Shown one piece after another: positions 30,320 to 47,848 of a stretch of DNA of 49,096 nucleotides; the stretch's first letter is position 1, and each line of letters starts with the position of its first letter. The notes beneath the pieces were generated by a model. That model did no database searches and had not been told where the DNA came from. It saw only the letters and a program-made list of their open reading frames with translations. The position numbers were made by a program, and so were the translations under genes. The stretch is from an uncultured Christensenella sp. (GTDB lineage Bacteria; Bacillota; Clostridia; Christensenellales; CAG-138): positions 1-49,096 of the forward strand of contig CAZDXW010000001.1 of the NCBI GenBank assembly GCA_964509485.1, read 5' to 3'.

Positions 30320-30511
30320 TCATAAGCTCCGTTCAGTTTTTCTATCCTCCACAATCGGTCGACAATACTCTTCTTTCCATCGATAGTAGGTTGCTTTGCC
30401 GATTTCCGCCGCTTTGCAGGCTTCGTCAATCGTCATCCCCTGGTTGTATTTGAGCATCACCAAAGCGAGTTTTTCCAGAATCTGCTCGCGTGTGTAGCTT
30501 TTACGCGCCAT
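30320..30511 (-). CDS. Small HTH protein, IS3 OrfA-like (63 aa)
   Basis: 'MTIDEACKAAEIGKATYYRWKEEY' resembles the HTH of IS3-family OrfA (Transposase_8-like). No OrfB/DDE domain follows. Confidence 0.5.
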   Translation of the reverse strand: MARKSYTREQILEKLALVMLKYNQGMTIDEACKAAEIGKATYYRWKEEYCRPIVEDRKTERSL

Positions 30512-30599: not shown

Positions 30600-30827
30600 T
30601 TACGATCCGACGTGCCGCTCCTGCTGGGATTCGAGCTGAACTCCCGCACGCCGCCACTTGTAGTAGGTATGCACGGAAATGCCCGCCGCCTTGCAGCACT
30701 TATTCAGCGGCAATCCGCTCTTGTATAGGGCCTCGATGTGCAGCAGCTTTACCATTGCCCATTCGTACTCTCCGCTGTTTGGCGTCATAACATTCCCCTT
30801 TTTCTCGATCATTTGATCAAATCTCAT
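30600..30827 (-). CDS. Small HTH protein, paralogue of the previous one (75 aa)
   Basis: 'LPLNKCCKAAGISVHTYYKWRRAG'. Its ATG (30827-30825) overlaps the TGA of the NlpC/P60 gene as an ATGA. Confidence 0.5.
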   Translation of the reverse strand: MRFDQMIEKKGNVMTPNSGEYEWAMVKLLHIEALYKSGLPLNKCCKAAGISVHTYYKWRRAGVQLESQQERHVGS

Positions 30828-32812
30828 TCTTCAAACAGTACCGGTCTGCGAATATACCGAAATCCCGTGCTCCATGCCTCCGTTACGACGACCCCGTTCT
30901 TTCGCGACGAGCAGTGCGCAACAAGATAGCTGCCGTCGTCGTCCACCGAGACAATGATTCCAACGTGGTTAAACTGCTTTTCCCCCGGTACCGAGTAGAA
31001 GGCCAGATCGCCCGGTTTTCCCTCGTCCCAGCCGATCGCCGTGGAATGCGACCACTGGCTCGACGACCCGTTGCCAATCGCTTCCAGTACGCTCGTGTCT
31101 CCGGTCGCGTTGACGAACGTCCAACTGACGAACCCGCTGCAGTCCAGCCCGCCGGTGCGTTCCACGACGACGGATTCCCCGTCCTGTTCCGTGCGAACCG
31201 AGCAGGGCAGCCCCCATTGCTCGTTCCAGCCAAGCTTGTTGTACTTCCCCCCCCAGAGGTAGGTCACCTTGCCGACCAGCGAAAACGCGGTTTCGACCAC
31301 ATCCTTGCGCCGGACATCAAGATCGGCGGGAAGCGCGGCGCGGATCTGCTCGAGATCGGCATCCGTCGCGTCGAGAAACGCGGCGTTCCCGGTCAGCGAC
31401 GCGAACGTACGCTGAAACTCCGGCTGCATCAGCTCATATAGAAAGCTTTCGCGCTTGGCGTCCATGTCGTACTCGCCGGCCATCTCGTCGTACGATTTCG
31501 AATCCAGCATGACATTCGTCACGCCGTCCATGCGGATCACGCTGACCGGGTTCATGCGCCAGAACACCTCGTCCAACCCGTCCAGCGAAATCGATCGCAG
31601 CTGCATCAGGTCCAGCGGATGATCCACGTCCAGACTGCTTTCGGCGATAAACGTCGCCAGCACGTCGGACCAGTTCTTCACCGCCGCTTCCTGCACCGGC
31701 GAGAATTCCGCCGGTGCGACGCTCTCCGCGTCCGTGTCGTTCTCCGTGGCCGACTGCGCCATGATCCGTACGCCTGTTTCGCCCGCGGTCATCGACTGAA
31801 CTTTCTCGGCATACTGCTGCGTCAAATCCGCAATCTTCGCCGTCAGCGCGTCGCAGATTTCGTTGCGATACGCCAACAACACCTCATATCGTTCCGCACT
31901 GCTGCCCGTTGGTTCCGCAACGGTTCCATCCACATCCTCGTCGCTCTCGCCGGTAACGTGAACCACCCGCGTCACGGTGATCAGTTCGCCATCCTGCATC
32001 GCGCCATAGGTCACGCGGTAGTCCCCCGCGAGATCCGCACAAAAACCCCCGTCGTCCACCACCCAAACCGCTATCGGTTCGCCGGATTCCGTCTGCGCGC
32101 TCACGCCTTCCAGCAGCACAAAGGACGTGTCTCCGGCGGGAATCGACGTGTCCGCCGCCGTAATCGTGACCTTGCCGGTCGCGCTCGTCGGCACCGGAAC
32201 CGGCGTCGGCGTCGGCTCCGTTTCGTCCGGTGCCGCCTCGCCTTTCGCCAGCACAATCGTCCTGCCTGCATCCTCCGAAAGGTTCGCTACGCTTGCGCCG
32301 CCGCTCTCGCGATAACCGTCCTTCTCGGCGTTCGCGCGGTAATCATGCCCAGTCGGCAGCAGCCAGAAGACACTCCCCTCCGCTCCCGTCACTTCGGAGT
32401 AGAGAAACTCGCCATCCATATAAAGCTTCACGCGCGCGCCGGAAAGCGCATTCCCGTCCGCATCCTGAACCAGAATGGTCAGTCGAGCGTCCGCCGGAAT
32501 GGGCGTTGCCTCCGGGTCTTCCGCTGCATCCGTGCCGTCGGGCGTTACCGAAGGTTCCGCCGACTGCGTCGCTTCGGGTGTCGGCGTACTCTCCGCCGGA
32601 GGCTCGCTTTGTTCGGATTCCTCCACCACCGCACTCTCTTCCGGCACGGCAGTTGCTTCCGGTTCGCACACCGCGTCGGTATACAGTTCATCCTCCAGCG
32701 TGTAATCCAGCGCGTGAACCGCCGGTTCGGCACAGGCGGACAAGGCAAGAAGCAGCATGCCCGTCATCAGCAGCAACGCCAGTTTTCCGAATTGTCCTCG
32801 ATTTCGTTTCAT
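30824..32812 (-). CDS. Secreted lipoprotein with Ig-like modules and a C-terminal NlpC/P60 peptidoglycan endopeptidase domain
   Basis: Start at ATG 32812 (AGGAGG RBS) and lipobox LLALSAC. A carboxypeptidase-regulatory-like segment (RLTILVQDADGNALSGARVKLY) and an Ig-like segment (GDYRVTYGA...VTRVVHV) are present. The catalytic Cys lies in GGLDCSGFVSW and the His in FNHVGI. Confidence 0.8.
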   Translation of the reverse strand: MKRNRGQFGKLALLLMTGMLLLALSACAEPAVHALDYTLEDELYTDAVCEPEATAVPEESAVVEESEQSEPPAESTPTPEATQSAEPSVTPDGTDAAEDPEATPIPADARLTILVQDADGNALSGARVKLYMDGEFLYSEVTGAEGSVFWLLPTGHDYRANAEKDGYRESGGASVANLSEDAGRTIVLAKGEAAPDETEPTPTPVPVPTSATGKVTITAADTSIPAGDTSFVLLEGVSAQTESGEPIAVWVVDDGGFCADLAGDYRVTYGAMQDGELITVTRVVHVTGESDEDVDGTVAEPTGSSAERYEVLLAYRNEICDALTAKIADLTQQYAEKVQSMTAGETGVRIMAQSATENDTDAESVAPAEFSPVQEAAVKNWSDVLATFIAESSLDVDHPLDLMQLRSISLDGLDEVFWRMNPVSVIRMDGVTNVMLDSKSYDEMAGEYDMDAKRESFLYELMQPEFQRTFASLTGNAAFLDATDADLEQIRAALPADLDVRRKDVVETAFSLVGKVTYLWGGKYNKLGWNEQWGLPCSVRTEQDGESVVVERTGGLDCSGFVSWTFVNATGDTSVLEAIGNGSSSQWSHSTAIGWDEGKPGDLAFYSVPGEKQFNHVGIIVSVDDDGSYLVAHCSSRKNGVVVTEAWSTGFRYIRRPVLFEE

Positions 32813-32848
32813 GTCCGCTCCTCCTTTCCCACCTGTTCGGCTCATTCG

Positions 32849-33748
32849 TCAGCCCACCCCGCGAACGACCATTCGCACTTCGCCGCAGATTGCGCTCATT
32901 GGAATCTGCCCGATTCGGACGTCCCGGCTGTCGATCGACTTCGCGCGGTTGTCTCCCATCAGAAACACCATGTCGTCCTGCACGGTCACACTCTCCATGC
33001 CGCTGTTGTGCAAATCATCCGCCTGGATGTAAGGCTCGTCGGTCAGCACCAGATTTCGCACGACGGTGCCGTCCGCGTTGACCTGAATCACGTCGCCCGG
33101 CAGCCCGATTACCCGTTTGACCACCAGGCCGTATGCATCTCCCGTATCGAAGATCACGATATCGCCGTAGGTCACGTCTTGTACGCTCGTGTAGTAGAGC
33201 TTGTCGCCCTCCATGAGCGTCGGCTGCATTGAGGTTCCGGTGACCGCGTACTCCCGAACCACCAGCAGCGCGCCAATCACCGCGAGCAGCGCAAACGCTA
33301 CCACCGCAAGCAGCACAATCAGGGATCGCTTCGCGTGCGGGTTCGATTGCGCGCGCTCTATTTTCTGTGGACTTGCAGCTAAGCTCTGCGGCTTTGCCTC
33401 TGGTTTTCGTTTCGGCTGCGGCAATTGCGGCTGCTTCGTCTTCTTTTTCTTGTGTTGTTTCGCCGGTTTTACACCCGTTTTCGGTCTGTTCTGTCCGGAA
33501 CCCTGGCGCGCACGCTCAATCGGGAACCGCAGCGGTTCCTTCTGCTTCGGCTTCTCCGTTTGCTGCGGCTGCGTCGGAACAAGCGTCCACTGCGGACGTT
33601 CATACGAGAATTCCGGCATCGCCTCCGGCCGGCTGTTCGGGTTGCACTCGTTTTCGCTCCGTTGTCGGATATACGTGTTTGGAGAACGTTTGATTGTTTT
33701 TCGGACGGTCTTATAGGTCTGTGTATATCCGGAAATCCGATTTTCCAT
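32849..33748 (-). CDS. Signal peptidase I (S26), catalytically intact, with a long basic N-terminal extension
   Basis: Box B 'GTSMQPTL' (Ser), box D 'VVKRVIGLPGD' (Lys) and box E 'GDNRAKSIDSR' are present. The single TM segment is LIVLLAVVAFALLAVIGALLVV. It is preceded by about 140 Lys/Pro/Gln-rich residues. Confidence 0.85.
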   Translation of the reverse strand: MENRISGYTQTYKTVRKTIKRSPNTYIRQRSENECNPNSRPEAMPEFSYERPQWTLVPTQPQQTEKPKQKEPLRFPIERARQGSGQNRPKTGVKPAKQHKKKKTKQPQLPQPKRKPEAKPQSLAASPQKIERAQSNPHAKRSLIVLLAVVAFALLAVIGALLVVREYAVTGTSMQPTLMEGDKLYYTSVQDVTYGDIVIFDTGDAYGLVVKRVIGLPGDVIQVNADGTVVRNLVLTDEPYIQADDLHNSGMESVTVQDDMVFLMGDNRAKSIDSRDVRIGQIPMSAICGEVRMVVRGVG

Positions 33749-33754
33749 GCTTCC

Positions 33755-34615
33755 TTACTTCCGTTTCGCCAGAATTACAAATCGTCCGTCGTTCGTGTGG
33801 TATGCGCAGGTGGACAGCGTAATCAGATCGTCCCCATAGCGGACCGCTATGCCTGTGTCGTACAGCGCCGCGCCCCGAATCCCGTCGAGAAAATCCTGAA
33901 AATCCGCCTCGTCCGTTGCGTTGAGAAACGTATAGCACCTTAGCGTCTTTGCCGCTCGAAGATCGGTTTCCATCGCGGCGAATATTTCGTAGTCGCCTTC
34001 GTCGTAGAGCGTGCTGAAATGAATGATCGGGTGTTCGCGCCAGAAGTCCTTGTCCTTGTACTTCACGATTGTTGCGAACATGCTTCCGTTCTTCATGTGG
34101 TGGCCGTAGAGCACGATGTTGTCGCTGCGCGGCCAAATCGTACAACCTTCCCCGACAAACGGAACTCCGCTCATGGATTTCTTCTTTGAAAACGCAAGAT
34201 GGATGTACCGTTCCGGCTCGTCCGGCGTGAACATCACGGGATAGTCGAGGTCGGTGTCGTCAATCTTGATCCACCCGCCCAAGTCGCTGTTTTGCGCGTA
34301 CAGCTCTGTAAACCGGCTTAAGATTTGCGCGTTCTTTGGTTCCTCTGCCGTTGGCTCCGGGCTGGCGGAGGAAGCGACTGTTTCACCAAGCGTTTCGGGC
34401 ACGGGCGTTGCCTGCGTAGCAGGTTCCGCATTCGACGTGGCCGCCAGCAGCGCGATCTCGCGAAACGCGTCTGCCTCCGCCGCCCGTTCGCGGTAGTCCG
34501 CCAGCAGCGCCGCGCCAGCGACCGAGATCAGCAGCAACCCCGTCATAGCGAGCAGCAGCCGGCGCAGGAACCGCTCCGCCTTGCTTTTGCACGTTTCGCG
34601 TCCGTTTCGTTCCAT
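33755..34615 (-). CDS. Class B sortase (second copy)
   Basis: N-terminal TM only. 'GWIKIDDTDLDYPVMF', 'VLYGHHMKNGSMF', 'TLSTC' and 'RFVILAKR' supply the His, Cys and Arg triad in SrtB-type context. There is no class C lid and no C-terminal TM. Confidence 0.82.
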   Translation of the reverse strand: MERNGRETCKSKAERFLRRLLLAMTGLLLISVAGAALLADYRERAAEADAFREIALLAATSNAEPATQATPVPETLGETVASSASPEPTAEEPKNAQILSRFTELYAQNSDLGGWIKIDDTDLDYPVMFTPDEPERYIHLAFSKKKSMSGVPFVGEGCTIWPRSDNIVLYGHHMKNGSMFATIVKYKDKDFWREHPIIHFSTLYDEGDYEIFAAMETDLRAAKTLRCYTFLNATDEADFQDFLDGIRGAALYDTGIAVRYGDDLITLSTCAYHTNDGRFVILAKRK

Positions 34616-34640: not shown

Positions 34641-35636
34641 TTACTTCTTGTTCTTCTTCCCCGGCAGGAACGCCGCCACCAGGCAAATCAATCCCAGCGC
34701 GATGAGAATCCACCAAAGGTAGGCCTTCGATTCGTCCCCCGTCTTTGGTCCGTCCGGCTTGTCGTAGGCGTTCGTAAACACCAGCCCCGTCTGCGCTGCT
34801 CCCGATGCGTTGGTGATTGTCCGCGTTGCGGAGAGCTTCCCGTTCGTTTCCGTCACCACGACCGTCATGTGGTAGACCGTTGAATCATAGGTGTATCCGC
34901 TTGCCGAACCAACTTTTTCGTACACGGTATAGGTGTAGGTTCCTGCTTGCGTATACGTAATGTTCCCGAAATCTCCGCTTCCCGCGCCTGTGACGTTGAC
35001 CGTTTTGATCCCGCTCACGCTTCCTTCCGGCATGGGGTACGACGCATTGTCCGCCTTCATGTAAAACGTAAATACGCTGTTTGACGATGGCGTGTCGCCG
35101 CTGATTCGCTTCTCCACCGGAGGGTCGACGATCACATAGTCCGAGAGCACCGTGTTCGTAAACAGTGCCCGTTCCTGTTTCTCCGTCTGCCCGTGCTTCA
35201 CGAGATACATCACCGCCTGCAGCGTTCCGCCCGCCTGATCCTTCCAGGTTACCTGCACGGTCAGATCGTATACGGTTGTGTCGTATACGTAGTCTCCGCT
35301 GGTCCCGGCGACTTCGGAAATGGTGTAAAGGTAGTCGCCAACCGCCGTATACGTAATCGTTCCAAACGTCGTGTTTCCCGTTCCCGCAATCGTGGTTGTC
35401 TTCACCCCGTTGACGCTTCCGGCGGGCATTGGCGCGTTGTTGAGGGCGCTCAAACGAAACGTGAACGTCTCCGTCGTCGCCGGTATGCCGGAAACCACCT
35501 TGTAAACGGGTATGCTCAGCGTTGCCGGGGTGTCCGCCAGCGCGAGATTTCCCGCGGGAACCAACAGCGTTATCGTAAGCAGTAGCAAGCCCGCCATGAC
35601 TTTCTGTAGCAATCGAATTCGGTTTATAGATTTCAT
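34641..35636 (-). CDS. Pilin subunit with two FctA/Spy0128-like isopeptide domains and a GPKTG sorting signal (candidate basal or minor pilin)
   Basis: Start at ATG 35636, which overlaps the upstream sortase TGA. It has a signal peptide. The repeated motifs are 'PVYKVV...GDYLYTISE...YDTTVYDLTVQV...FTN' and 'VEKRISG...GTYTYTVYE...YDSTVYHMTVVV...FTNAY'. The C-terminus is 'GPKTGDES', a TM helix, then KKNKK. Confidence 0.8.
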   Translation of the reverse strand: MKSINRIRLLQKVMAGLLLLTITLLVPAGNLALADTPATLSIPVYKVVSGIPATTETFTFRLSALNNAPMPAGSVNGVKTTTIAGTGNTTFGTITYTAVGDYLYTISEVAGTSGDYVYDTTVYDLTVQVTWKDQAGGTLQAVMYLVKHGQTEKQERALFTNTVLSDYVIVDPPVEKRISGDTPSSNSVFTFYMKADNASYPMPEGSVSGIKTVNVTGAGSGDFGNITYTQAGTYTYTVYEKVGSASGYTYDSTVYHMTVVVTETNGKLSATRTITNASGAAQTGLVFTNAYDKPDGPKTGDESKAYLWWILIALGLICLVAAFLPGKKNKK

Positions 35637-36414: not shown

Positions 36415-37752
36415 TTACTTGCGTTTCCTGAGCAGGATCACGACCAGGAGGATCGCAACCACGCCGAGCAGCGCATAGGGCAGGATGTTGAGCAGCACGC
36501 CCGTCGGCGTCACAGACTCCTTGTTGTTCGTGAAGTTCTGCTCGTTGACCGCACCCGCGCCCGTGAAGATTGTCTGCTGGTTGGTCGTTTTATTGGTCGT
36601 TACCGCCGTCTTAACCGTCGTCAGCACCGCCGGGGTAGCCGTATTGCCGTGTTCAACGGTGATCGTCGTGCGGTAATCCGCCGTTCCGCTCTCTGTCGTC
36701 GTCACGCGCTCGCCCGACGGCAGGCCGATGATCTGGATGTACTGGCTGTGCGTCAGCGTGAACGTTCCGGAGTTCGAAATGGTTCCGGTTCCGCCCGCCA
36801 CCGCGGTGTCCGCCGCCGTGCCCGTTCCGCCGATTGCGTTGTCGCTGCCCATCTCATACTTCTGATAGGTATAGCTTGCCGTGTCGGCGGCTCCCGCCGG
36901 CGTGACCAGTCCAAGCGTAAACGAGAATGCCAGGTTCGGGTCCGCGATGTCACCGGTGACCAGTTTCGTAACCGTCAGGGCTGCCGTGTTGTAGTCGTTG
37001 ACAAACGGGTAGCTGATGTTGCGAACGGCTCCGTCCGTAGCCGGAGGCAGCACGATGCCGATTTTACCGACGTCCTCTTCGCCCGGGTTGTTCGTGATCG
37101 GTCCCAGATTGCCGTTGTCCGGCCCGGTCAGGGTCAGGTTGCTGGTGTTGGTGGTTTCCCACGCCGTAATCGCGCTGACGTTTACCACCGGGTTGCCGCT
37201 CGCATCCAGTAAGGGCGTGCCGTCGTCATTCAACACGTTGGTGACGTAAACGTTGATGTAGTAGACCGTTTCGTCATAGTCCACACCGGAGATCGGGGAT
37301 CCCGGAACGGTACCCAGCGTATCGGTCGTGCCGGGGATGCGCTCGGTGAGCCGATAGGTGTAAATACCCGCTTGCGTATAGGTGATGTTCCCCGTCGTGG
37401 TGGTCTGCGTCTGCGTCGTGCCCGTTGCCGTCGCCGAGAAACCGCTCACAGTGATGAGCTGCGCACCGGTCGTTCCGCCCGGCATTGGCAGGTTCGCCGC
37501 GGTATACGCAATCGACCCTGCGCTCGTTGGCCCCGCCGTATAGCCCACCGGCTCCAGCAAAAAGCCAAAGCTCGTGACCGCCGGAAAGACCCCTGCCGTC
37601 GTCGCCGTCAGCGTCTTGCCAACGGTGATGTTTGCGCTGTTGTTGTGGCTCGCCGGATCATCCGCCATGGATGTGGTGAACGGTGCCATCACCAGTGCCA
37701 GAGCGAGCAGCATCATCAGCGCTCTTCCAAGTTTTCCGTAGTTGCGTTTCAT
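36415..37752 (-). CDS. Backbone pilin candidate, two-domain FctA/Spy0128-like, VTPTG sorting signal
   Basis: Signal peptide. Domain 1 reads 'ITVGKTL...GIYTYRLTE...YDETVYYINVYV...YPFVNDY'. Domain 2 reads 'LTVTKLVTGD...FSFTL...QNFTNNK'. The C-terminus is 'VTPTG-VLLNILPYALLGVVAILLVVILL-RKRK'. Its position relative to the SipA-like gene and the sortase mirrors fctA. Confidence 0.8.
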   Translation of the reverse strand: MKRNYGKLGRALMMLLALALVMAPFTTSMADDPASHNNSANITVGKTLTATTAGVFPAVTSFGFLLEPVGYTAGPTSAGSIAYTAANLPMPGGTTGAQLITVSGFSATATGTTQTQTTTTGNITYTQAGIYTYRLTERIPGTTDTLGTVPGSPISGVDYDETVYYINVYVTNVLNDDGTPLLDASGNPVVNVSAITAWETTNTSNLTLTGPDNGNLGPITNNPGEEDVGKIGIVLPPATDGAVRNISYPFVNDYNTAALTVTKLVTGDIADPNLAFSFTLGLVTPAGAADTASYTYQKYEMGSDNAIGGTGTAADTAVAGGTGTISNSGTFTLTHSQYIQIIGLPSGERVTTTESGTADYRTTITVEHGNTATPAVLTTVKTAVTTNKTTNQQTIFTGAGAVNEQNFTNNKESVTPTGVLLNILPYALLGVVAILLVVILLRKRK

Positions 37753-37849: not shown

Positions 37850-38428
37850 TTATAGCCCGCGGTTTCGCAGCAGTGAAATCACTTTCCCTTTGATATCCCC
37901 TTTCGCAACCGGGCCAAAATCCCGGCTGTCCTGCGCGTACTCGCGGTTGTCCCCGAGGATGAACACCTCGTTTCCCGCGAGTGTAACCGGTAGAACGGTT
38001 GCCCGCCCTTCGGCGCTTGTCGCGGAAAACACCTCTTCCTGCTGAACGCTGCCGTTGACAATCAGCTGTCCATCCGCGTTGAGATCCACCGTGTCTCCGC
38101 CCATTGCGACAATGCGCCCGTAATACAGAACTCCGTTCTTTGCGTAGGCAACAACGTCGCTGACGTTTTGCTCCGCTTCCAGCCGGTAAAAAATCACCAT
38201 GTCTCCGTCCCGCAGGCGAGGATACATTCCCTCGCCGTTTACAATTCCGACTCCAAAGAGGAAGGAGAGCGCCAGATATCCGCATATCGCAATTGCGGCA
38301 ATCTTCTCCGCCAGTGCCCATGCACTGTGCCGGATCTCCAACCTTCGCCTGCGCGTCTGGAAAATCTGTACAACGCGTTCTTTATCGTCGACCTTGTGTT
38401 TCCCGCTCATTCTACTCGTTTGTTCCAT
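37850..38428 (-). CDS. SipA/LepA-like signal-peptidase-I homologue lacking the catalytic Ser and Lys (pilus assembly chaperone candidate)
   Basis: It has the S26 fold boxes, but box B reads 'GEGMYPRL' (Gly where Ser is expected). Box D reads 'YGRIVAMGGD' (Gly where Lys is expected). Box E 'GDNREYAQDSRDFGPV' is retained. Start taken at ATG 38428 (MEQTSRM). The alternative at 38461 overlaps the upstream gene by 32 nt. Confidence 0.8.
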   Translation of the reverse strand: MEQTSRMSGKHKVDDKERVVQIFQTRRRRLEIRHSAWALAEKIAAIAICGYLALSFLFGVGIVNGEGMYPRLRDGDMVIFYRLEAEQNVSDVVAYAKNGVLYYGRIVAMGGDTVDLNADGQLIVNGSVQQEEVFSATSAEGRATVLPVTLAGNEVFILGDNREYAQDSRDFGPVAKGDIKGKVISLLRNRGL

Positions 38429-38429
38429 C

Positions 38430-38897
38430 TCACTTGCCCGAGGCGCTCTTTCCTCCGCCATACAGCTTCAAGATTTGGTTGGCCGAGAATGCCTGCGCGG
38501 AAGCGGTCTCATCTTCGCGGCTCTGCCCAAACTGTCGCTGTTTCTGCTTTCGCGTTTGCGTCTCACTCGGAACAAGCGCCGCCGTCTGCTCTTGCCGCTC
38601 CTGAACTCTCATTGGTTCCTTCTGCATGGCCTCTTTCAGCTGATTCCACTCGTCCCGCATCCGCTTCACTTCCTCGTCGTTCTCGCGGATCATGTCCTGC
38701 AGCTGCAACGCGTAGTTGCGCCATTCGCCAACCGCCCCCTGCGAGTTTTGGTGCTGAACATCCAGCAGCTCGTCGTATTCCCCATGCAGTTTCTCGAATA
38801 CCCGCCAGACGTCCTCTTCGTCCACTCCGCCGATGATCCGATTCCGAAATTTTACGGAGTTCAAGTATCTCTCCAGTTGTTTGTAACTCTTTGCCAT
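38430..38897 (-). CDS. Coiled-coil protein with a DivIVA-like N-terminal motif
   Basis: 155 aa with no signal peptide. 'VKFRNRIIGGVDEEDVWRVFEKL' resembles the DivIVA/GpsB N-terminal 'F..GFRGYD..EVD.FL' motif. Heptad-rich Glu/Gln/Arg sequence follows. Confidence 0.55.
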   Translation of the reverse strand: MAKSYKQLERYLNSVKFRNRIIGGVDEEDVWRVFEKLHGEYDELLDVQHQNSQGAVGEWRNYALQLQDMIRENDEEVKRMRDEWNQLKEAMQKEPMRVQERQEQTAALVPSETQTRKQKQRQFGQSREDETASAQAFSANQILKLYGGGKSASGK

Positions 38898-43016: not shown

Positions 43017-44327
43017 TTAGTCGATGACTTGTATAGCGTTACTGTCGCCTTCTTCGCCCGGCGTACTGTTCGTCTTTGCCGTTTGCGACGCATCCTTCAG
43101 AACGACGATTTCCGCGGTTACCCGCCCTCCGCCGCCAAATCCATCCTCGACATGCATACTCAATTTGTAAGTGCCCGCCGAATCCGTATCGTACCTCCCA
43201 CTCCATGAGATGGGGATGTTCCGGTAACCGCCGTCTCGCATGAACGCGCCCGTTTGGCTTGGCAGATGTACGCTTTCGCCTTCCAGAACAACAAAGCGCA
43301 TCAGAAGTCCGTCCTCGGATATGCCACAGAAACTTTGAATCTCGTTGCAGTCCGCAATGCGTACGCTTGCCGTCACCGGTTCGCCCGCGTAGGTATAGGC
43401 GGTGGAGGGAGTGCTCACCTCTGGCGTTTGCACCGGTTCTTCCGTTTGATCGGGCACAGGGCTCTCTTCGATTTGCTCCGTCGTCTCCACCGTCTCGGAG
43501 GAGGGATTCAGTATCGACGCCGTGAACACCCAGGGGCCATAGCCATACCGGCTCTCGATTGCATAAATCGTCTCATTCTCGTAGAGCTCGTTTGCTTCGT
43601 CCGCAACGCTGGCCCAAGTAACCGGAACCTCAATCGGTACCCCGTTGCCGTTGATTGCGGTAAGCGTCGCAGGCAGCGGGATATTCTCCTCCGAAGTGCC
43701 GCGCTCCACGAAGATTTCGATCGGTTCGTTCACAAAGGAAGTAATCACAGAATCGAGCGCGGGATCGGGCGTCGGGGTGATCTCCGGCGAAGCGCTTCCA
43801 TCCGGCGTTAAGCTCGGTTCCGGCGTTTCGGAAGCATCCGGCGTAGCGAAAGGCTCCGCTTCCTCTGCCGCCTGCACCTCAACCTCAATAGTTGGCAGCG
43901 TTCCTTCGTATATGTATCCCGGCTGAAGTACCGCGGCGAAGAGGTATGTGCCAATGGAATCCGGCGTATAATCCTCGCTCACCCAGGCAACGGGCACGTC
44001 GCGCAGTTCCAGTATCTCGGTCGGCGCTTCGCTTTGCTCCGCATCCTGCGAAGGTTCCTGAGGAATCACAACGCTTGCGGGGAGCGTATCCGGCAGCCCG
44101 ATTTCTTCCGCCGCTGTTCCAAGCGGCACAACCAGCTTTGCTGTGCGCTCCTCGGAAAACGAAGCGATAGCGACTTCTCCGTCCGCCAGAGCGCGTACTG
44201 TTTTCGTGCCGCAGGCGGTAGCAAAGAGGCAAAGCACCAGCAGCATGCAGGTGAATATCCGTGCCCTGCTTAACCCGGTATGCGTCGTACCCATGTTTCT
44301 TTGGCTCTCGCCTGATTTCTGATTCAA
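43017..44327 (-). CDS. Lipoprotein with three Big_4-like Ig modules; first gene of the pilus operon
   Basis: TTG start at 44327, placed 7 nt after AGGAGG. An alternative ATG lies at 44294. Lipobox LFATAC. Three 'V(P)V.W....Y...S.GTY' modules are present (VPVAWVSEDYTPDSIGTYLF, VPVTWASVADE, IPISWSGRYDTDSAGTYKL), separated by Pro/Glu/Thr linkers. Confidence 0.7.
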   Translation of the reverse strand: MNQKSGESQRNMGTTHTGLSRARIFTCMLLVLCLFATACGTKTVRALADGEVAIASFSEERTAKLVVPLGTAAEEIGLPDTLPASVVIPQEPSQDAEQSEAPTEILELRDVPVAWVSEDYTPDSIGTYLFAAVLQPGYIYEGTLPTIEVEVQAAEEAEPFATPDASETPEPSLTPDGSASPEITPTPDPALDSVITSFVNEPIEIFVERGTSEENIPLPATLTAINGNGVPIEVPVTWASVADEANELYENETIYAIESRYGYGPWVFTASILNPSSETVETTEQIEESPVPDQTEEPVQTPEVSTPSTAYTYAGEPVTASVRIADCNEIQSFCGISEDGLLMRFVVLEGESVHLPSQTGAFMRDGGYRNIPISWSGRYDTDSAGTYKLSMHVEDGFGGGGRVTAEIVVLKDASQTAKTNSTPGEEGDSNAIQVID

Positions 44328-44560
44328 GTGGATTCCTCCTCATTTGCGTCATATCTTTATATTGGAGTTTTGCACTGTGCCCATTGTGTTCTCGTTCGCA
44401 GCTCGGCGATAGCGTCTTATCCTGTGCCGTTGGACTCCCCGAATCGCCGTTTTCGGTTTCGCTTTTCCAGCGTCTTTTCGAAAAAATGTTTTAAAGATTT
44501 CTTTATTCACGATTTATGTTGTTTTCCACAGTTTCATTTCTAACACTTCGTAAACCACTC

Positions 44561-44583
44561 CACAATGTACGGAAATACAGTTT
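44561..44583 (-). promoter_or_regulatory. Conserved box, copy A (upstream of the pilus operon)
   Basis: The plus-strand sequence CACAATGTACGGAAATACAGTTT is nearly identical to copy B at 45398-45420. It lies directly after the terminator of the second response-regulator gene. Confidence 0.45.
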
Positions 44584-44590
44584 GGACATA

Positions 44591-44628
44591 AAATTAAGTA
44601 CAGTTCAGCGAACTAAACTGTACTTAAA
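44591..44628 (-). terminator. Intrinsic terminator after response regulator 2
   Basis: Hairpin AAGTACAGTT...AACTGTACTT followed by a T-run on the minus strand. Confidence 0.65.
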
Positions 44629-44656
44629 GTCGTGCTGCTATTGCTCTTTTTAGGCT

Positions 44657-45328
44657 CTACTTCCTGTCCTCCATCCATCCCATCTTCGCTGCGTACGCGA
44701 TTACTTGTGACTTGTTCTCCATTTGCAGTTGCTCCATGATCGAAGCCATGTGATATTTTACGGTTCGTTCGGTGATTCCAAGAAGATCGCCCGTTTCTTT
44801 ATAGGTCGTTCCTTTTGCTACCGCTTCCAGTACTTCCATTTGTCGTTCAGTGAGCCCGCTGCCGATGTGTGTGTTCGCCCCCGAGAGGAACACACGATTT
44901 TTCAGATCGCTGCTACTGATCTCCCGGAGCAGCCGCGCCGCCAGCCTGGGCGAGAGCGGAGCGCCTCCGTTTTCCAAGTCCAACAGCATATCAACCAGCT
45001 CCGCTCCGTTCATGCTCTTGAGCAGATAGCCGGATGCGCCCAGTTTAATTGCCTGGAACAAATCTTCGTCGTCCTCGGACGTGGTCAGCATAATGATTTT
45101 TATCCCCGGCATCCGCCCCTTGATCTGACGGAGGGCTTCAATCCCGTCGCATTCCGGCATGCGGACATCCATTAAAATAATATCCGGTGTAAGCGTTTCG
45201 GCTTTCTGCACCGCTTCCCTTCCGTTGCAAGCCACACCGACAACCTCTACGCCATAGGTTCCCAATAAAAACTGCAAACTGTCGGTAAACAGTTTATGAT
45301 CGTCTGCCAGCAGTATTCTCGGCGCCAT
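44657..45328 (-). CDS. NarL/LuxR-family response regulator (copy 2)
   Basis: Start at ATG 45328 (MAPRILLADDHKLF). Receiver domain (DIILMDVRMP, IIMLTTS, GASGYLLK) followed by a LuxR HTH (LTERQMEVLEAVAKGTTYKETGDLLGITERTVKYHM). Confidence 0.88.
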   Translation of the reverse strand: MAPRILLADDHKLFTDSLQFLLGTYGVEVVGVACNGREAVQKAETLTPDIILMDVRMPECDGIEALRQIKGRMPGIKIIMLTTSEDDEDLFQAIKLGASGYLLKSMNGAELVDMLLDLENGGAPLSPRLAARLLREISSSDLKNRVFLSGANTHIGSGLTERQMEVLEAVAKGTTYKETGDLLGITERTVKYHMASIMEQLQMENKSQVIAYAAKMGWMEDRK

Positions 45329-45397
45329 GTCCCATCCCTCGTTTCCCAATTCCTTTTACATCGTTCCCCCTTTATTTAACACTGATTGTAACTATTT

Positions 45398-45420
45398 CAC
45401 AATGTACCGATATACAGTCC
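45398..45420 (-). promoter_or_regulatory. Conserved box, copy B (upstream of response regulator 2)
   Basis: The plus-strand sequence is CACAATGTACCGATATACAGTCC. It shares CACAATGTAC and ATACAGT with copy A, and ACCGATATACA with copy C. Confidence 0.45.
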
Positions 45421-45430
45421 AGCAAAATGA

Positions 45431-45465
45431 AAAAAGTACAGTCGGCTTCTTTCGACTGTACTTTT
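45431..45465. terminator. Intrinsic terminator after response regulator 1
   Basis: AAAAGTACAGTCG-GCTTCTT-TCGACTGTACTTTT, with A and T runs on the two sides. Confidence 0.7.
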
Positions 45466-45487
45466 CAAAAACTGTACTCTGAGTTCT

Positions 45488-46153
45488 CTATTTTTGATGG
45501 ATCCATCCCATCTTCGTCGCGTAGGCGATCGCCTGCGCTTTGTTTTCTGTTTGGAGTATCTCCATAATGGTCGCCATATGATACTTCACGGTTCGTTCGG
45601 TGATGTGCAGCTGGCTACCAACCTCCTTATAGGTCGCGCCTCGAGCCACCGCTTCCAGCACCTCAATCTGACGTTGTGTCAACGGGTCATCATTTGCTGC
45701 ATCCACCTGCGCAACAACGGCGTTTGTCGGCTCTCCACCACGGCGAAACTCATTGAGCAGACGCGTTGCCAGCTTCGGCGCGAGCGGAGCGCCGCCTTTC
45801 TCGATATTGAGCAGCATTTCGACCAGTTCATTCCCGTTCATGCTTTTCAGCAGATAACCGGACGCCCCCAGCTTGATTGCCTGAAACAGGTTCTCGTCTT
45901 CATCGGACGTGGTCAGCATGACCACCTTGACGTCCGGCATCTTGCTCTTGATTCGCTTCAGTGTCTGAATTCCATTGCTCCCCGGCATCATAATGTCCAT
46001 CAGAATCACGTTTGGCTTCAGTTCTTCGGCTTTTTGCAGTGCTTCAAACCCGTTTTCCGCTACACCGAGAACCTCGATCCCATAGGTTCCCAACAGAAAC
46101 TTCAAACTATCGGTAAACAGCTTATGGTCATCGACAAGAAGTATTTTTAACAT
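45488..46153 (-). CDS. NarL/LuxR-family response regulator (copy 1, cognate position after the kinase)
   Basis: MLKILLVDDHKLF..., receiver domain plus LuxR HTH. It is a paralogue of copy 2, sharing long identical runs (LFQAIKLGASGYLLKSMNG, TERTVKYHMA). Confidence 0.9.
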   Translation of the reverse strand: MLKILLVDDHKLFTDSLKFLLGTYGIEVLGVAENGFEALQKAEELKPNVILMDIMMPGSNGIQTLKRIKSKMPDVKVVMLTTSDEDENLFQAIKLGASGYLLKSMNGNELVEMLLNIEKGGAPLAPKLATRLLNEFRRGGEPTNAVVAQVDAANDDPLTQRQIEVLEAVARGATYKEVGSQLHITERTVKYHMATIMEILQTENKAQAIAYATKMGWIHQK

Positions 46154-46165
46154 ATGCTATCCTCT

Positions 46166-47848
46166 CTATTCCAACGGAAGAAACAGTTGGATCTGGGTTC
46201 CTTTTCCGGGTTTTGACTCGATGCTCAGCTCCGCACCCATTTCCGCCGCGCGCTCACGCATAATGTTTAATCCAAAGTGATTCTCAATGGAAATATCCGG
46301 GTCAAACCCGCATCCATCGTCGCGTAGAAAAATCCAGAGGGCGTCTTTTGTTTGTCGCATCGTCAACGCAACCTGCTTTGCGCCTGTGGCGTGTTTACGA
46401 ACGTTGTTCAACGCCTCTTTTAAGATATAGTAAAGGTTCACCCGGGCTCTATTGTTCAATCGACTGACGACATTCGCTCCAGTAATATTCTCGGAAACGG
46501 CAATGCCAGTCTGCCTATGAAATTCTTCCAAGGTCTCTCTGGTCACGGCGAATGGGTCTTTTTCCACCGATTGCGCCTCGCGCACGCTGTGGATGTAGTC
46601 CCGTATCTCACGGTGTGCTGTTTGCGAAATATCGACCAGTCTCGAAAGATCCCGATATACCTTTTCGGTTTCCTCATACTTGAGCTCGTTGCAGATTCCC
46701 TGCGCCTGCATGCTAATCGACGCCAGCACCTGCGCGAGATTATCGTGCAGGTCTCTGGCCAGCTTCTCGCGTTCTCTGCTGGCAACGACCGCTGTGGTTT
46801 GCTGCAGCGTGCGCTGCTGTTCCATTCGCATTTCCGTAATATCGGAAATCAGAACGACATATCCGGCGTCAACGCCTTTTTTACTCGTAATCGGCATCCT
46901 TTGCGCGCGAAGATACTTCCTGGCGCCCGCGTTCTCCTCCAACAGAATTTCGGTGGAATCACCGTTTTGCAGGTCGCACAGTTCGCGGCTCAGGCTCGAC
47001 AGAACACTCACCGCCGACATGCCGAGCAGCGACCTCTTGTTTTTCTCAAACATCAATTGAGCCGCGTGATTTACATCCGCTATGTTCCCGTAGTTGTTTA
47101 TCACGAGAATTGCAACGTTGATGTTGTCCACCGCCGCCCCTCTGGCAATTGGCGCTGAAACAAACAAGTGATAGCCGCCCGCCGCTGCGAGCACGGATGC
47201 AACGCTCAAAAAAACACCGGTAATGTCGTATCCCTTGGTCAGCCAAAACGACATCAGATAAAGCAGGCTCGGACAAATACTGATGACTGGCCCCAGTAAA
47301 AACGAAGACATTTTCATTCCGTAAATGGATTTATAGAACAGCGATTTTTGAAAGACCAGTATCATTGCAATGGCGTCCAGCGTATATGTGTAAATTGGAT
47401 TGAGCAAAAAAACCCAGGCGAAGGATCGAGAAGTGGCCGGCAGTCGCACCCCGGCGTCTATGGAAAACCCATAATACACCAATCCGGAGAAGTGCTTTGT
47501 CCAGACTAGAATCATCGATAGAATCGGAAGGATAAGAAGAAGGATGAGCGTTTTTGATTTCAGCCATTCCCGCTTGCCTCCAAACTGAAGCACCATAATA
47601 AACCAGATTGTATGCAAAGCCGTATACAAACAGAATGTAGCGTTTTCCCAGAAATTCTGCGTGTAAAAGTCTGCGCTCAGGATCGAGAGTCCCTTGCAGA
47701 CGATCCAGCCGCCTAGAAAAAGCATGCTAAGGCCAAACAGTTTTGCACCCCTGACTCTGTAATAGATCACCGAAAACAAACCCTGCATCATGACGATAAA
47801 AAACGATATCACCATGGACCATATGCCAGGAATGTACTTGAAATACAT
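46166..47848 (-). CDS. Sensor histidine kinase: N-terminal 7TM domain - PAS - HisKA_3 - HATPase (NarL-type partner)
   Basis: About 7 hydrophobic helices in the first 230 aa, then a PAS-like segment. The H-box is 'LARDLHDNLAQVL' (HisKA_3), followed by 'LKEALNNVRKHA' and 'DDGCGF...GLNIMRERA'. Confidence 0.88.
   Translation of the reverse strand: MYFKYIPGIWSMVISFFIVMMQGLFSVIYYRVRGAKLFGLSMLFLGGWIVCKGLSILSADFYTQNFWENATFCLYTALHTIWFIMVLQFGGKREWLKSKTLILLLILPILSMILVWTKHFSGLVYYGFSIDAGVRLPATSRSFAWVFLLNPIYTYTLDAIAMILVFQKSLFYKSIYGMKMSSFLLGPVISICPSLLYLMSFWLTKGYDITGVFLSVASVLAAAGGYHLFVSAPIARGAAVDNINVAILVINNYGNIADVNHAAQLMFEKNKRSLLGMSAVSVLSSLSRELCDLQNGDSTEILLEENAGARKYLRAQRMPITSKKGVDAGYVVLISDITEMRMEQQRTLQQTTAVVASREREKLARDLHDNLAQVLASISMQAQGICNELKYEETEKVYRDLSRLVDISQTAHREIRDYIHSVREAQSVEKDPFAVTRETLEEFHRQTGIAVSENITGANVVSRLNNRARVNLYYILKEALNNVRKHATGAKQVALTMRQTKDALWIFLRDDGCGFDPDISIENHFGLNIMRERAAEMGAELSIESKPGKGTQIQLFLPLE

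Follow-up and report, generated by a model that had tools for sequence, protein, structure and literature searches.

The DNA analysed here (hereafter the window) is a 49,096-nucleotide stretch of contig CAZDXW010000001.1, in assembly GCA_964509485.1 of an uncultured Christensenella sp. Near the 3' end of a sortase-pilus operon on its minus strand lies a gene for a 299-residue type I signal peptidase (SPase), in which a long, basic N-terminal extension precedes the membrane anchor. A sequence-only reading of the window had drawn attention to this gene, for its seemingly intact catalytic site as well as for its tail. The features of the gene are as follows, with residue numbers referring to the peptidase.

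33758–33762, minus strand: Shine–Dalgarno (SD)-like GGAAG, 9 nt 5' of the ATG, inside the last codons of the upstream sortase gene (sortase stop at 33755–33757); identified in the sequence
32849–33748, minus strand: type I signal peptidase gene, 299 amino acids, ATG to stop with the stop included (PF10502, E = 6e-30; TIGR02227)
33701–33733, minus strand: N-terminal motif SGYTQTYKTVR, residues 6–16, with the core Y8-T9-x-T11-Y12 (alignment conservation)
33512–33538, minus strand: second motif EPLRFPIER, residues 71–79 (conservation in alignments)
33323–33493, minus strand: Lys/Pro/Gln-rich basic linker, residues 86–142, net charge +15, isoelectric point (pI) 11.7; poorly conserved and variable in length
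33254–33322, minus strand: single transmembrane (TM) anchor, residues 143–165, hydrophobic stretch SLIVLLAVVAFALLAVIGALLVV (AlphaFold2 helix at residues 137–163, with a predicted local distance difference test score, pLDDT, of 84–87)
32852–33253, minus strand: extracytoplasmic S26 catalytic domain, residues 166–299 (invariant columns; alignments to 4ME8 and 4NV4)
33230–33232 and 33116–33118, minus strand: codons of Ser173 and Lys211, within the catalytic domain

The enzyme domain is readily recognised. Pfam family PF10502 (Peptidase_S26) covers residues 146–295 with a score of 104.8 bits, against a cut-off of 22.9, and the NCBIfam model TIGR02227 (sigpep_I_bact) gives the whole protein 103.9 bits, against a cut-off of 47; on the strength of its sequence, the open reading frame (ORF) is assigned as a bona fide bacterial type I signal peptidase (MEROPS S26A). 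The three motifs quoted in the sequence-only reading, namely GTSMQPTL (containing Ser173), VVKRVIGLPGD (containing Lys211) and the box E sequence GDNRAKSIDSR, are all present. An alignment of 16 homologues shows no variation at Ser173, at Lys211 or in the GDNRxxSIDSR box, and these line up with the same boxes of the solved SPases 4ME8 and 4NV4, which together with SpsB are matched by the peptidase in the PDB. The enzyme looks catalytically intact and is apparently active, as far as can be judged from these residues. The sole hydrophobic helix is preceded by a segment of net charge +22, which fits the positive-inside rule, and the best explanation for this architecture is a membrane-anchored protein with its N-terminus in the cytoplasm and its catalytic domain outside the cell.

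Other assignments were considered for this ORF and rejected. The models for the ER (endoplasmic reticulum)/archaeal-type SPases (SipW-like, TIGR02228) and for the conjugative TraF peptidase (TIGR02771) score 30.9 and 32.5 bits respectively, below their cut-offs of 51.85 and 100.25. Membership of the SipA/LepA type is contradicted by the retained Ser/Lys dyad and by the closest solved relatives, SipA not being among the PDB matches of the peptidase at E ≤ 1e-3.

SPases of this lineage are not as short ahead of the membrane as the sequence-only reading had supposed when it allowed housekeeping enzymes only a few cytoplasmic residues. In 115 homologues the median number of residues before the catalytic Ser is 63 (interquartile range 61–66), from which ~35–40 cytoplasmic residues are estimated for a typical homologue. 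The corresponding figure is 73–254 across the whole of the tailed clade to which the window peptidase belongs, and 143–254 in its crown group. Most SPase homologues also possess a conserved ELKRERNRxRF-type segment ahead of the TM helix, and three Clostridial type I enzymes (P0036, 261 residues; P0095, 212 residues; P0060, 223 residues) bear unrelated N-terminal extensions of 60–100 residues. Cytoplasmic N-terminal regions are common in this part of the family.

The ATG of the peptidase lies 7 nt downstream of the stop codon of a class B sortase gene. The same gap measures 2–7 nt in five loci (the window and the orthologous loci L001, L008, L026 and L028) and 44 nt in L002, with an SD-like GGAAG placed 9–12 nt 5' of the ATG in most of these; GGAAG is kept in L001, L008, L028 and L030, and AAAGGGA stands at the equivalent place in L026. 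The peptidase is probably translationally coupled to the upstream sortase, and so to the pilus genes. On the minus strand, neither an internal promoter nor a terminator was found between the SPase gene and the rest of the operon, and the peptidase is co-transcribed with the pilus genes.

The sequence-only reading had allowed for the extension being untranslated, with the true start near the TM helix, in which case the open frame upstream of it would be accidental. The comparative data contradict this, and I regard it as hardly credible. A public gene call did begin one orthologue, P0010 (L008:4159–5052), at an internal Met and so reported 170 residues, but the true ORF at that locus encodes 297 residues, begins 3 nt after the sortase stop and carries the conserved N-terminal motif; automatic annotation can evidently hide the extension. 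The internal starts available in the window are Met44, TTG109 and GTG145/149, both GTG codons falling inside the TM helix. Met44 is indeed the only other in-frame ATG, as had been pointed out, but it is replaced by Ala or Thr in the orthologues. The 142 tail codons are open and in frame at all orthologous loci, with every insertion or deletion in frame, and nine protein clusters of 47–84% identity span all 299 residues. By the Nei–Gojobori method, the ratio of nonsynonymous to synonymous substitution rates (dN/dS) of the tail is 0.22 between the window and L001, 0.32–0.36 between the window and L028, and 0.26 between L002 and L009, compared with 0.15–0.18 for the catalytic domain. Differences between the window and L001 tails are distributed 22/20/46 over the three codon positions, an excess at the third. 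Because the frame stays open despite the insertions and deletions, and because dN/dS is below 1, the extension is coding rather than a chance open frame; this comparison, to which the conserved SD-like GGAAG can be added, argues that it is translated and under purifying selection, albeit more relaxed than that of the enzyme domain.

The tail itself (residues 1–142) is as basic and as low in complexity as had been described, with 19 Lys, 19 Pro, 16 Gln and 14 Arg residues, a net charge of +22 and a pI of 10.7. In the AlphaFold2 model, residues 1–134 have a pLDDT of ~34 and no secondary structure, and are followed by the confident TM helix (residues 137–163) and the S26 fold; the tail is therefore predicted to be intrinsically disordered and cytoplasmic. 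Searched alone against Pfam it gives no match (best E = 0.14), and a match of the full protein to DUF1180 (18.6 bits, cut-off 27.7) was discarded as a low-complexity artefact. An 84-position profile of residues 1–85, run against 1.84 billion representative sequences, recovered only 3 clusters, all belonging to this SPase clade; the possibility of a tail module in unrelated proteins was rejected, this exhaustive search having returned solely its own clade.

Within the tail, conservation is strongest at the extreme N-terminus, over ~10 residues with the consensus [F/S]-x(1,2)-Y-T-[Q/N/S]-T-Y. Residues Y8, T9, T11 and Y12 are invariant, and S6, V15 and R16 are at least 90% conserved. Locus L030, whose peptidase is shorter (217 residues), retains the motif as FMQYTSTYQK. 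For the second motif, one alignment (A3) shows F75, E78 and R79 as invariant and P76 as at least 90% conserved, F75 falling to at least 90% in the 11-sequence alignment (A2) that adds L008; this FPxER element is not present in L030. The Lys/Pro/Gln-rich linker is the least conserved part of the tail and is missing from L030. The expectation that the extension would be kept in orthologues therefore holds for its translation and for its terminal motif, but not for the segment that had attracted notice. These comparisons indicate that the basic linker is a late, fast-evolving spacer, and that the conserved element is a terminal short linear motif.

Two repetitive patterns were noted in connection with the tail. 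Tandem Repeats Finder detects no tandem repeats in the linker of the window peptidase; in the orthologue P0011, (T/A)DK(K/R)QP-type repeats can be seen by eye. The two pilins of the operon (34641–35636 and 36415–37752, both minus strand) contain ITYTQAG(T/I)YTY strands, and the tail contains GYTQTYKTV. This shared YTQ..TY pattern is short and probably due to chance, and the tail is predicted to be cytoplasmic.

Such a tail might have no partner at all, and be a disordered and fast-evolving spacer whose charge enforces the N-in topology or provides a non-specific affinity for anionic lipids. The conservation of its N-terminus would then reflect constraints on how translation starts or is coupled, or on the stability of the protein, for instance through an N-terminal degron. 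Its predicted disorder, the concentration of its net charge of +22 beside the TM helix, its wide variation in length including the loss of the spacer in L030, and a dN/dS above that of the catalytic domain all agree with this. I nevertheless consider it unlikely, as the YTxTY core is kept at the amino-acid level despite synonymous codon changes between loci (TAT/TAC, ACA/ACG) in proteins that are only ~50% identical, and as conservation recurs ~70 residues from the start, in the FPxER motif. In addition, paralogues associated with Tad-type pili (described below) hold a different, equally conserved N-terminal motif, which suggests system-specific recognition.

Basic C-terminal tails of YidC2/Oxa1-type insertases bind ribosomes, and the tail could in the same manner bind ribosomes or nucleic acid, coupling the translation and secretion of the operon products to their cleavage. 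In favour of this, residues 86–142 are strongly basic, disordered and close to the membrane. However, they are the part of the tail that is least conserved and that L030 does without, Pfam detects no nucleic-acid-binding domain, and there is no evidence of a link between SPases and ribosomes; I therefore see this role as improbable.

The operon in which the peptidase gene is found is of the FCT type. The genes discussed below are these:

38430–38897, minus strand: 155-residue cytoplasmic coiled-coil protein (DUF6115, borderline), candidate docking partner; read as cytoplasmic from its translation
37850–38461, minus strand: SipA/LepA-type, catalytically dead SPase homologue (4N31 SipA, E = 3.7e-23; Gly at the Ser and Lys positions)
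33755–34615, minus strand: upstream class B sortase, 286 amino acids (TIGR03064, 144 bits, just under the cut-off of 153.75; synteny)
30824–32845, minus strand: downstream partner of the peptidase, a 673-residue CHAP/NlpC-P60 protein with a lipobox-like LSAC and a conserved VxA|LDY (Pfam CHAP and NLPC_P60)

In the order of the minus strand, the operon encodes a 1390-residue SdrD-B/DUF7601 tip adhesin, the coiled-coil protein, the SipA-like protein, a DUF7601 pilin, a class B sortase, an FctA/Spy0128-type pilin, the second class B sortase, the peptidase, the CHAP/NlpC-P60 protein and two small helix-turn-helix (HTH) proteins. The pilins bear xPTG/PKTG sorting signals, and the three pilus precursors possess ordinary SPase I sites (AQA|G, SMA|D and ALA|D). 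A dead SPase in the same operon had been reported in the sequence-only reading, and corresponds to the SipA/LepA homologue, with Gly at both dyad positions. Read from its first ATG, at 38461, this SipA-like ORF shares 32 nt with the end of the coiled-coil gene (38428–38461, minus strand), and a second ATG follows the coiled-coil stop by 1 nt (TGAGATG), which would make the protein ~11 residues shorter and translationally coupled.

All orthologues that share this N-terminus are encoded directly 3' of a class B sortase gene, within the same kind of pilus operon; the sequence-only reading had suggested checking whether such homologues always neighbour sortase-B pilus genes. Among loci with enough sequence, the gene order is kept in L001, L026, L028, L030 and L031, and partially in L002 and L008; the coiled-coil and SipA-like genes occur in all six loci for which the full upstream region is available (the window, L001, L026, L028, L030 and L031). 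A metagenome scan recovered solely Tad-type and generic SPases and no further tailed loci, the tailed clade therefore being rare.

The most constant neighbour of the peptidase is not a pilus gene. A CHAP orthologue lies directly 3' of the SPase gene in 25 of 25 loci (L001–L025), with 48–84% identity over its full length, and the pairing recurs in the later and metagenomic loci wherever the sequence is long enough. It also occurs outside the FCT-type operon, where peptidases of ~190 residues, with catalytic domains 50–55% identical to that of the window enzyme, have no FCT-type operon upstream. In 18 such loci, and in 2 more, which together are all those with enough downstream flank, the pair of short peptidase and CHAP protein stands directly 5' of a Tad/Flp locus encoding an A24 prepilin peptidase, Flp pilins, TadE, RcpC, CpaE, CpaF and TadB; a few of these loci also have a SpaA-type sortase pilus cluster upstream. 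Tad-type loci with the pair were noted in Christensenellales metagenome-assembled genomes (L004:10001–20576, L012–L025, L033 and L037), the window pair being at 30824–33748.

Neighbour-joining trees of the SPase and of the CHAP protein show the same split, into an FCT-linked and a Tad-linked clade, with L030 basal within the former, and the metagenome-assembled genome UBA8911 holds both pairs (L009 and L015). Because the two trees split alike and one genome holds both versions, the pair is concluded to have been duplicated as a unit, with one copy recruited to the 3' end of the sortase-pilus operon. The live SPase is part of a separate two-gene cassette appended to that operon, since its CHAP/NlpC-P60 neighbour is invariant across both the FCT-type and the Tad-type contexts. 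Tad-linked SPases (L004, L012–L025 and L032–L045) moreover have an N-terminal motif of their own, (S/P)-A-(E/D)-x-W-A-Y-E, ~15–25 residues from the start; a short cytoplasmic motif at the N-terminus is accordingly a general feature of this SPase subfamily, differing between the FCT and Tad contexts.

The sequence-only reading had proposed a dedicated leader peptidase for the pilus substrates; such a dedication is hypothetical, and the invariant neighbour in both pilus contexts is the CHAP/NlpC-P60 protein. It is possible, though on balance doubtful, that the dedicated client of the peptidase is instead this hydrolase, or the signal-anchors of the sortases, and not the pilins: the cassette would open the cell wall locally for any pilus, with the SPase maturing or releasing the hydrolase. 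The two genes pair up in both contexts and co-diverge, and in the Tad-type loci the pilins are cut by the nearby A24 prepilin peptidase, so that the SPase must have a different client in those loci. A (V/I)-x-A|LDY site is retained by every CHAP orthologue, 6 residues past a Cys, and SPase cleavage of a sortase anchor is documented in Actinomyces oris (PMC9282373). This Cys, however, is invariant and lipobox-like, which argues for processing of the CHAP protein as a lipoprotein by SPase II, and the pilus precursors, with the ordinary SPase I sites given above, stay plausible clients. A choice between clients also addresses substrates only, and leaves the tail unexplained. In the CHAP orthologues of L001–L028 the context of the Cys varies (LSAC, QFGC, LLGC and others), and the (V/I)-x-A|L-D-Y that follows it resembles an SPase I site; the protein may undergo lipidation, cleavage by SPase I, or the two together.

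I favour a reading, to which I give a probability of roughly 0.55, in which the gene product is an active peptidase with a docking motif in its tail, and the gene belongs to a cassette recruited to an FCT-type pilus operon. A two-gene cassette, made of a type I SPase and a ~670-residue CHAP/NlpC-P60 cell-wall hydrolase, accompanies pilus-biogenesis loci in Christensenellales, with an older short-tailed copy upstream of Tad/Flp loci and a paralogous copy appended to the 3' end of the FCT-type sortase-pilus operon. The latter is translated from its first ATG, probably coupled to the upstream sortase. The functional core of its tail would be [F/S]-x(1,2)-Y-T-[Q/N/S]-T-Y, the FPxER motif and the variable basic spacer being later gains. 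The terminal motif might dock on a system-specific cytoplasmic partner while the basic spacer lies along the anionic membrane; peptidase and hydrolase would in this way be held where the secreted precursors of the operon emerge, and signal peptides would be removed on site. Its candidate substrates would be the three pilins, which have xA|x sites, and perhaps also the CHAP protein or the anchors of the sortases. Two precedents can be cited: GpsB acts as an adaptor by binding short Arg-containing cytoplasmic mini-domains of envelope enzymes (PMC6335420), and in A. oris the signal peptide of SrtA, the housekeeping sortase, is cut by the SPase LepB2 (PMC9282373).

Among the products of the operon, as read from the translations, the 155-residue coiled-coil protein alone is evidently cytoplasmic; it has no hydrophobic segment. 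For this reason it is the most economical candidate for a tail partner. Its residues 20–93 are acidic (net charge −8), F17 is invariant and R18 at least 90% conserved. The family is small: 5.8 billion proteins contain no more than 16 clusters of it, which all seem to come from this type of locus. Its description as "DivIVA-like" in the sequence-only reading is borne out at the level of a motif, but not by family or structure searches. With hhalign, and with reference sequences entered by hand, residues G24–D46 align to G19–R41 of Bacillus subtilis DivIVA (E = 0.07) and G24–D42 to G24–E42 of B. subtilis GpsB (E = 0.19). The Pfam DivIVA family is matched in 3 of 15 members only, at E ≥ 0.2, and searches of PDB sequences, of PDB profiles and with Foldseek gave no significant match. 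Homology of this neighbour to DivIVA/GpsB is therefore tentative at most, being non-significant by PDB, Pfam and Foldseek and weak, though register-consistent, by hhalign. The protein also shows a GGVDEEDVWRVFE..H.EYDEL signature like that of the DivIVA/GpsB N-terminal domain, which is not statistically significant, and a conserved C-terminal AFSANQLLKxYG. A DivIVA-like domain fused to the extended SPase P0036 was considered as well, and set aside for want of similarity to the coiled-coil protein.

Several observations weigh against the docking proposal. The likeness of the coiled-coil protein to DivIVA/GpsB appears to be motif-level only, and the peptidase tail has no exact SRxxR(R/K) or TRxxYR-type GpsB motif. 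This protein is an unproven, candidate partner, and its co-occurrence with the tail is confounded by that of the whole FCT-type operon. The linker is dispensable in L030 and fast-evolving elsewhere, with a spacer dN/dS of up to 0.54 against L026, and much of the Lys/Pro/Gln stretch may for these reasons be near-neutral. The disorder of the tail comes from a model built on a shallow alignment of 16 sequences, and is indicative only. Finally, the invariant lipobox-like Cys of the CHAP protein may make it a client of SPase II and not of SPase I. As for the sequence-only reading, its observation of a live, long-tailed peptidase is confirmed and its interpretation partly supported, the tethering of the tail to a protein, to nucleic acid or to lipids being hypothetical.

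A broader version of the docking proposal can be formulated, in which the pair is a portable "envelope-passage" cassette with exchangeable N-terminal motifs (YTxTY in the sortase/FCT context, xWAYE in the Tad/Flp context) that direct the peptidase to where two pili of unrelated mechanism are assembled, and the DivIVA-like coiled-coil reads YTxTY. I hold this to be distinctly unlikely; if true, it would imply that sortase-pilus assembly is positioned from the cytoplasm via the tail of a signal peptidase.

The adaptor logic invoked for the tail can be compared to that of GpsB/DivIVA clients. Like these, the peptidase is an envelope enzyme located outside the cytoplasm, with a single TM helix and, at its N-terminus, a cytoplasmic segment that is basic, contains Arg and lacks structure. 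The operon of the window moreover encodes a small coiled-coil protein that bears the signature F-R ... G-x-D-E-E-D-V ... E-Y-D. GpsB clients, however, carry their SRxxR(R/K) or TRxxYR motifs adjacent to the membrane (PMC6335420), whereas here the motif is YTxTY and lies up to ~130 residues away from it. Within residues 1–30 the only conserved Arg is R16, in TVRKTIKR, ~125 residues from the TM helix.

The closest parallel to the operon as a whole is provided by Streptococcus pyogenes SipA/LepA (4N31, 4K8W), also a protein of signal peptidase fold within a pilus operon with a class B sortase, in the FCT loci. Its true homologue in the window is the protein encoded at 37850–38461, and not the peptidase studied here. 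SipA is a known inactive SPase-like factor of FCT-type pili, devoid of the Ser/Lys dyad, in place of which it has Asp48 and Gly85 (PMC4049620). The peptidase by contrast retains Ser173 and Lys211, is encoded at the opposite end of the operon within the SPase–CHAP cassette, and possesses a long cytoplasmic tail. In homologues from the pilus loci of Streptococcus suis and Streptococcus agalactiae the dyad seems to be intact (PMC4049620), so that an active SPase at such a locus is not without precedent.

Further parallels exist for the individual features of the system. Clostridial SPases with N-terminal regions of 35–100 residues, such as P0036 and P0060, are also extended, with sequences unrelated to the tail, and actinobacterial LepB proteins, such as that of Mycobacterium tuberculosis, possess an N-terminal extension. 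The SPase SipW of B. subtilis, encoded within the operon tapA-sipW-tasA, is dedicated to fibre proteins and has an additional terminal segment credited with a second function; it is of the ER/archaeal type with this segment at its C-terminus, while the peptidase fails TIGR02228 and has its extra segment at the N-terminus. Staphylococcus aureus SpsA and SpsB are an adjacent pair of inactive and active SPases, encoded by tandem genes unrelated to pili and without long tails. A. oris LepB2 is reportedly one of several SPase I paralogues and specifically needed for sortase-pilus assembly; this and its cleavage of SrtA show that specialisation of SPase paralogues for the pilus and sortase pathway can occur. 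It is not known to be encoded in the pilus operon, belongs to a different phylum, and has neither a CHAP partner nor a conserved N-terminal docking motif described.

Pathway-dedicated SPases, pairs of dead and live SPases, dyad-intact homologues in pilus loci and long SPase N-termini are thus already known. What appears to be new is the orphan disordered tail with a conserved terminal motif, the presence of a SipA homologue and an active SPase together in one FCT-type operon, and the SPase–CHAP cassette common to Tad and sortase pilus loci; literature searches on the SPase–CHAP cassette, on Christensenella pili and on N-terminally extended Gram-positive SPases found nothing relevant. Little is known of how Gram-positive bacteria bring secretion, the removal of signal peptides, sortase action and wall remodelling together at a single spot for pilus assembly. 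Dedicated (A. oris LepB2) and inactive (SipA) SPase paralogues matter in this process, but their positioning is not known. If the terminal motif is a docking site, it would offer a simple, mutable handle on the spatial coupling of secretion to pilus assembly, and Tad and sortase pili of Christensenellales would have a newly defined accessory cassette. Should the tail be a near-neutral spacer, the finding shrinks to an ordinary extra signal peptidase.

Two other groups of genes were noted at the ends of the operon. Downstream of the CHAP gene, two small HTH_Tnp_1-like ORFs (30600–30827, 75 residues, and 30320–30511, 63 residues, both on the minus strand) are found at the same place in L001, L002, L008 and L028, and could be operon regulators or remnants of a mobile element. 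At the other end, 5' of the tip adhesin (43017–47848, minus strand), lie genes for a Big_4 surface protein, two LuxR-type response regulators and a histidine kinase of the seven-transmembrane (7TM)-PAS type. The same set precedes the FCT-type operon in L030 (L030:1–4737), and the two-component system may therefore belong to the pilus island.

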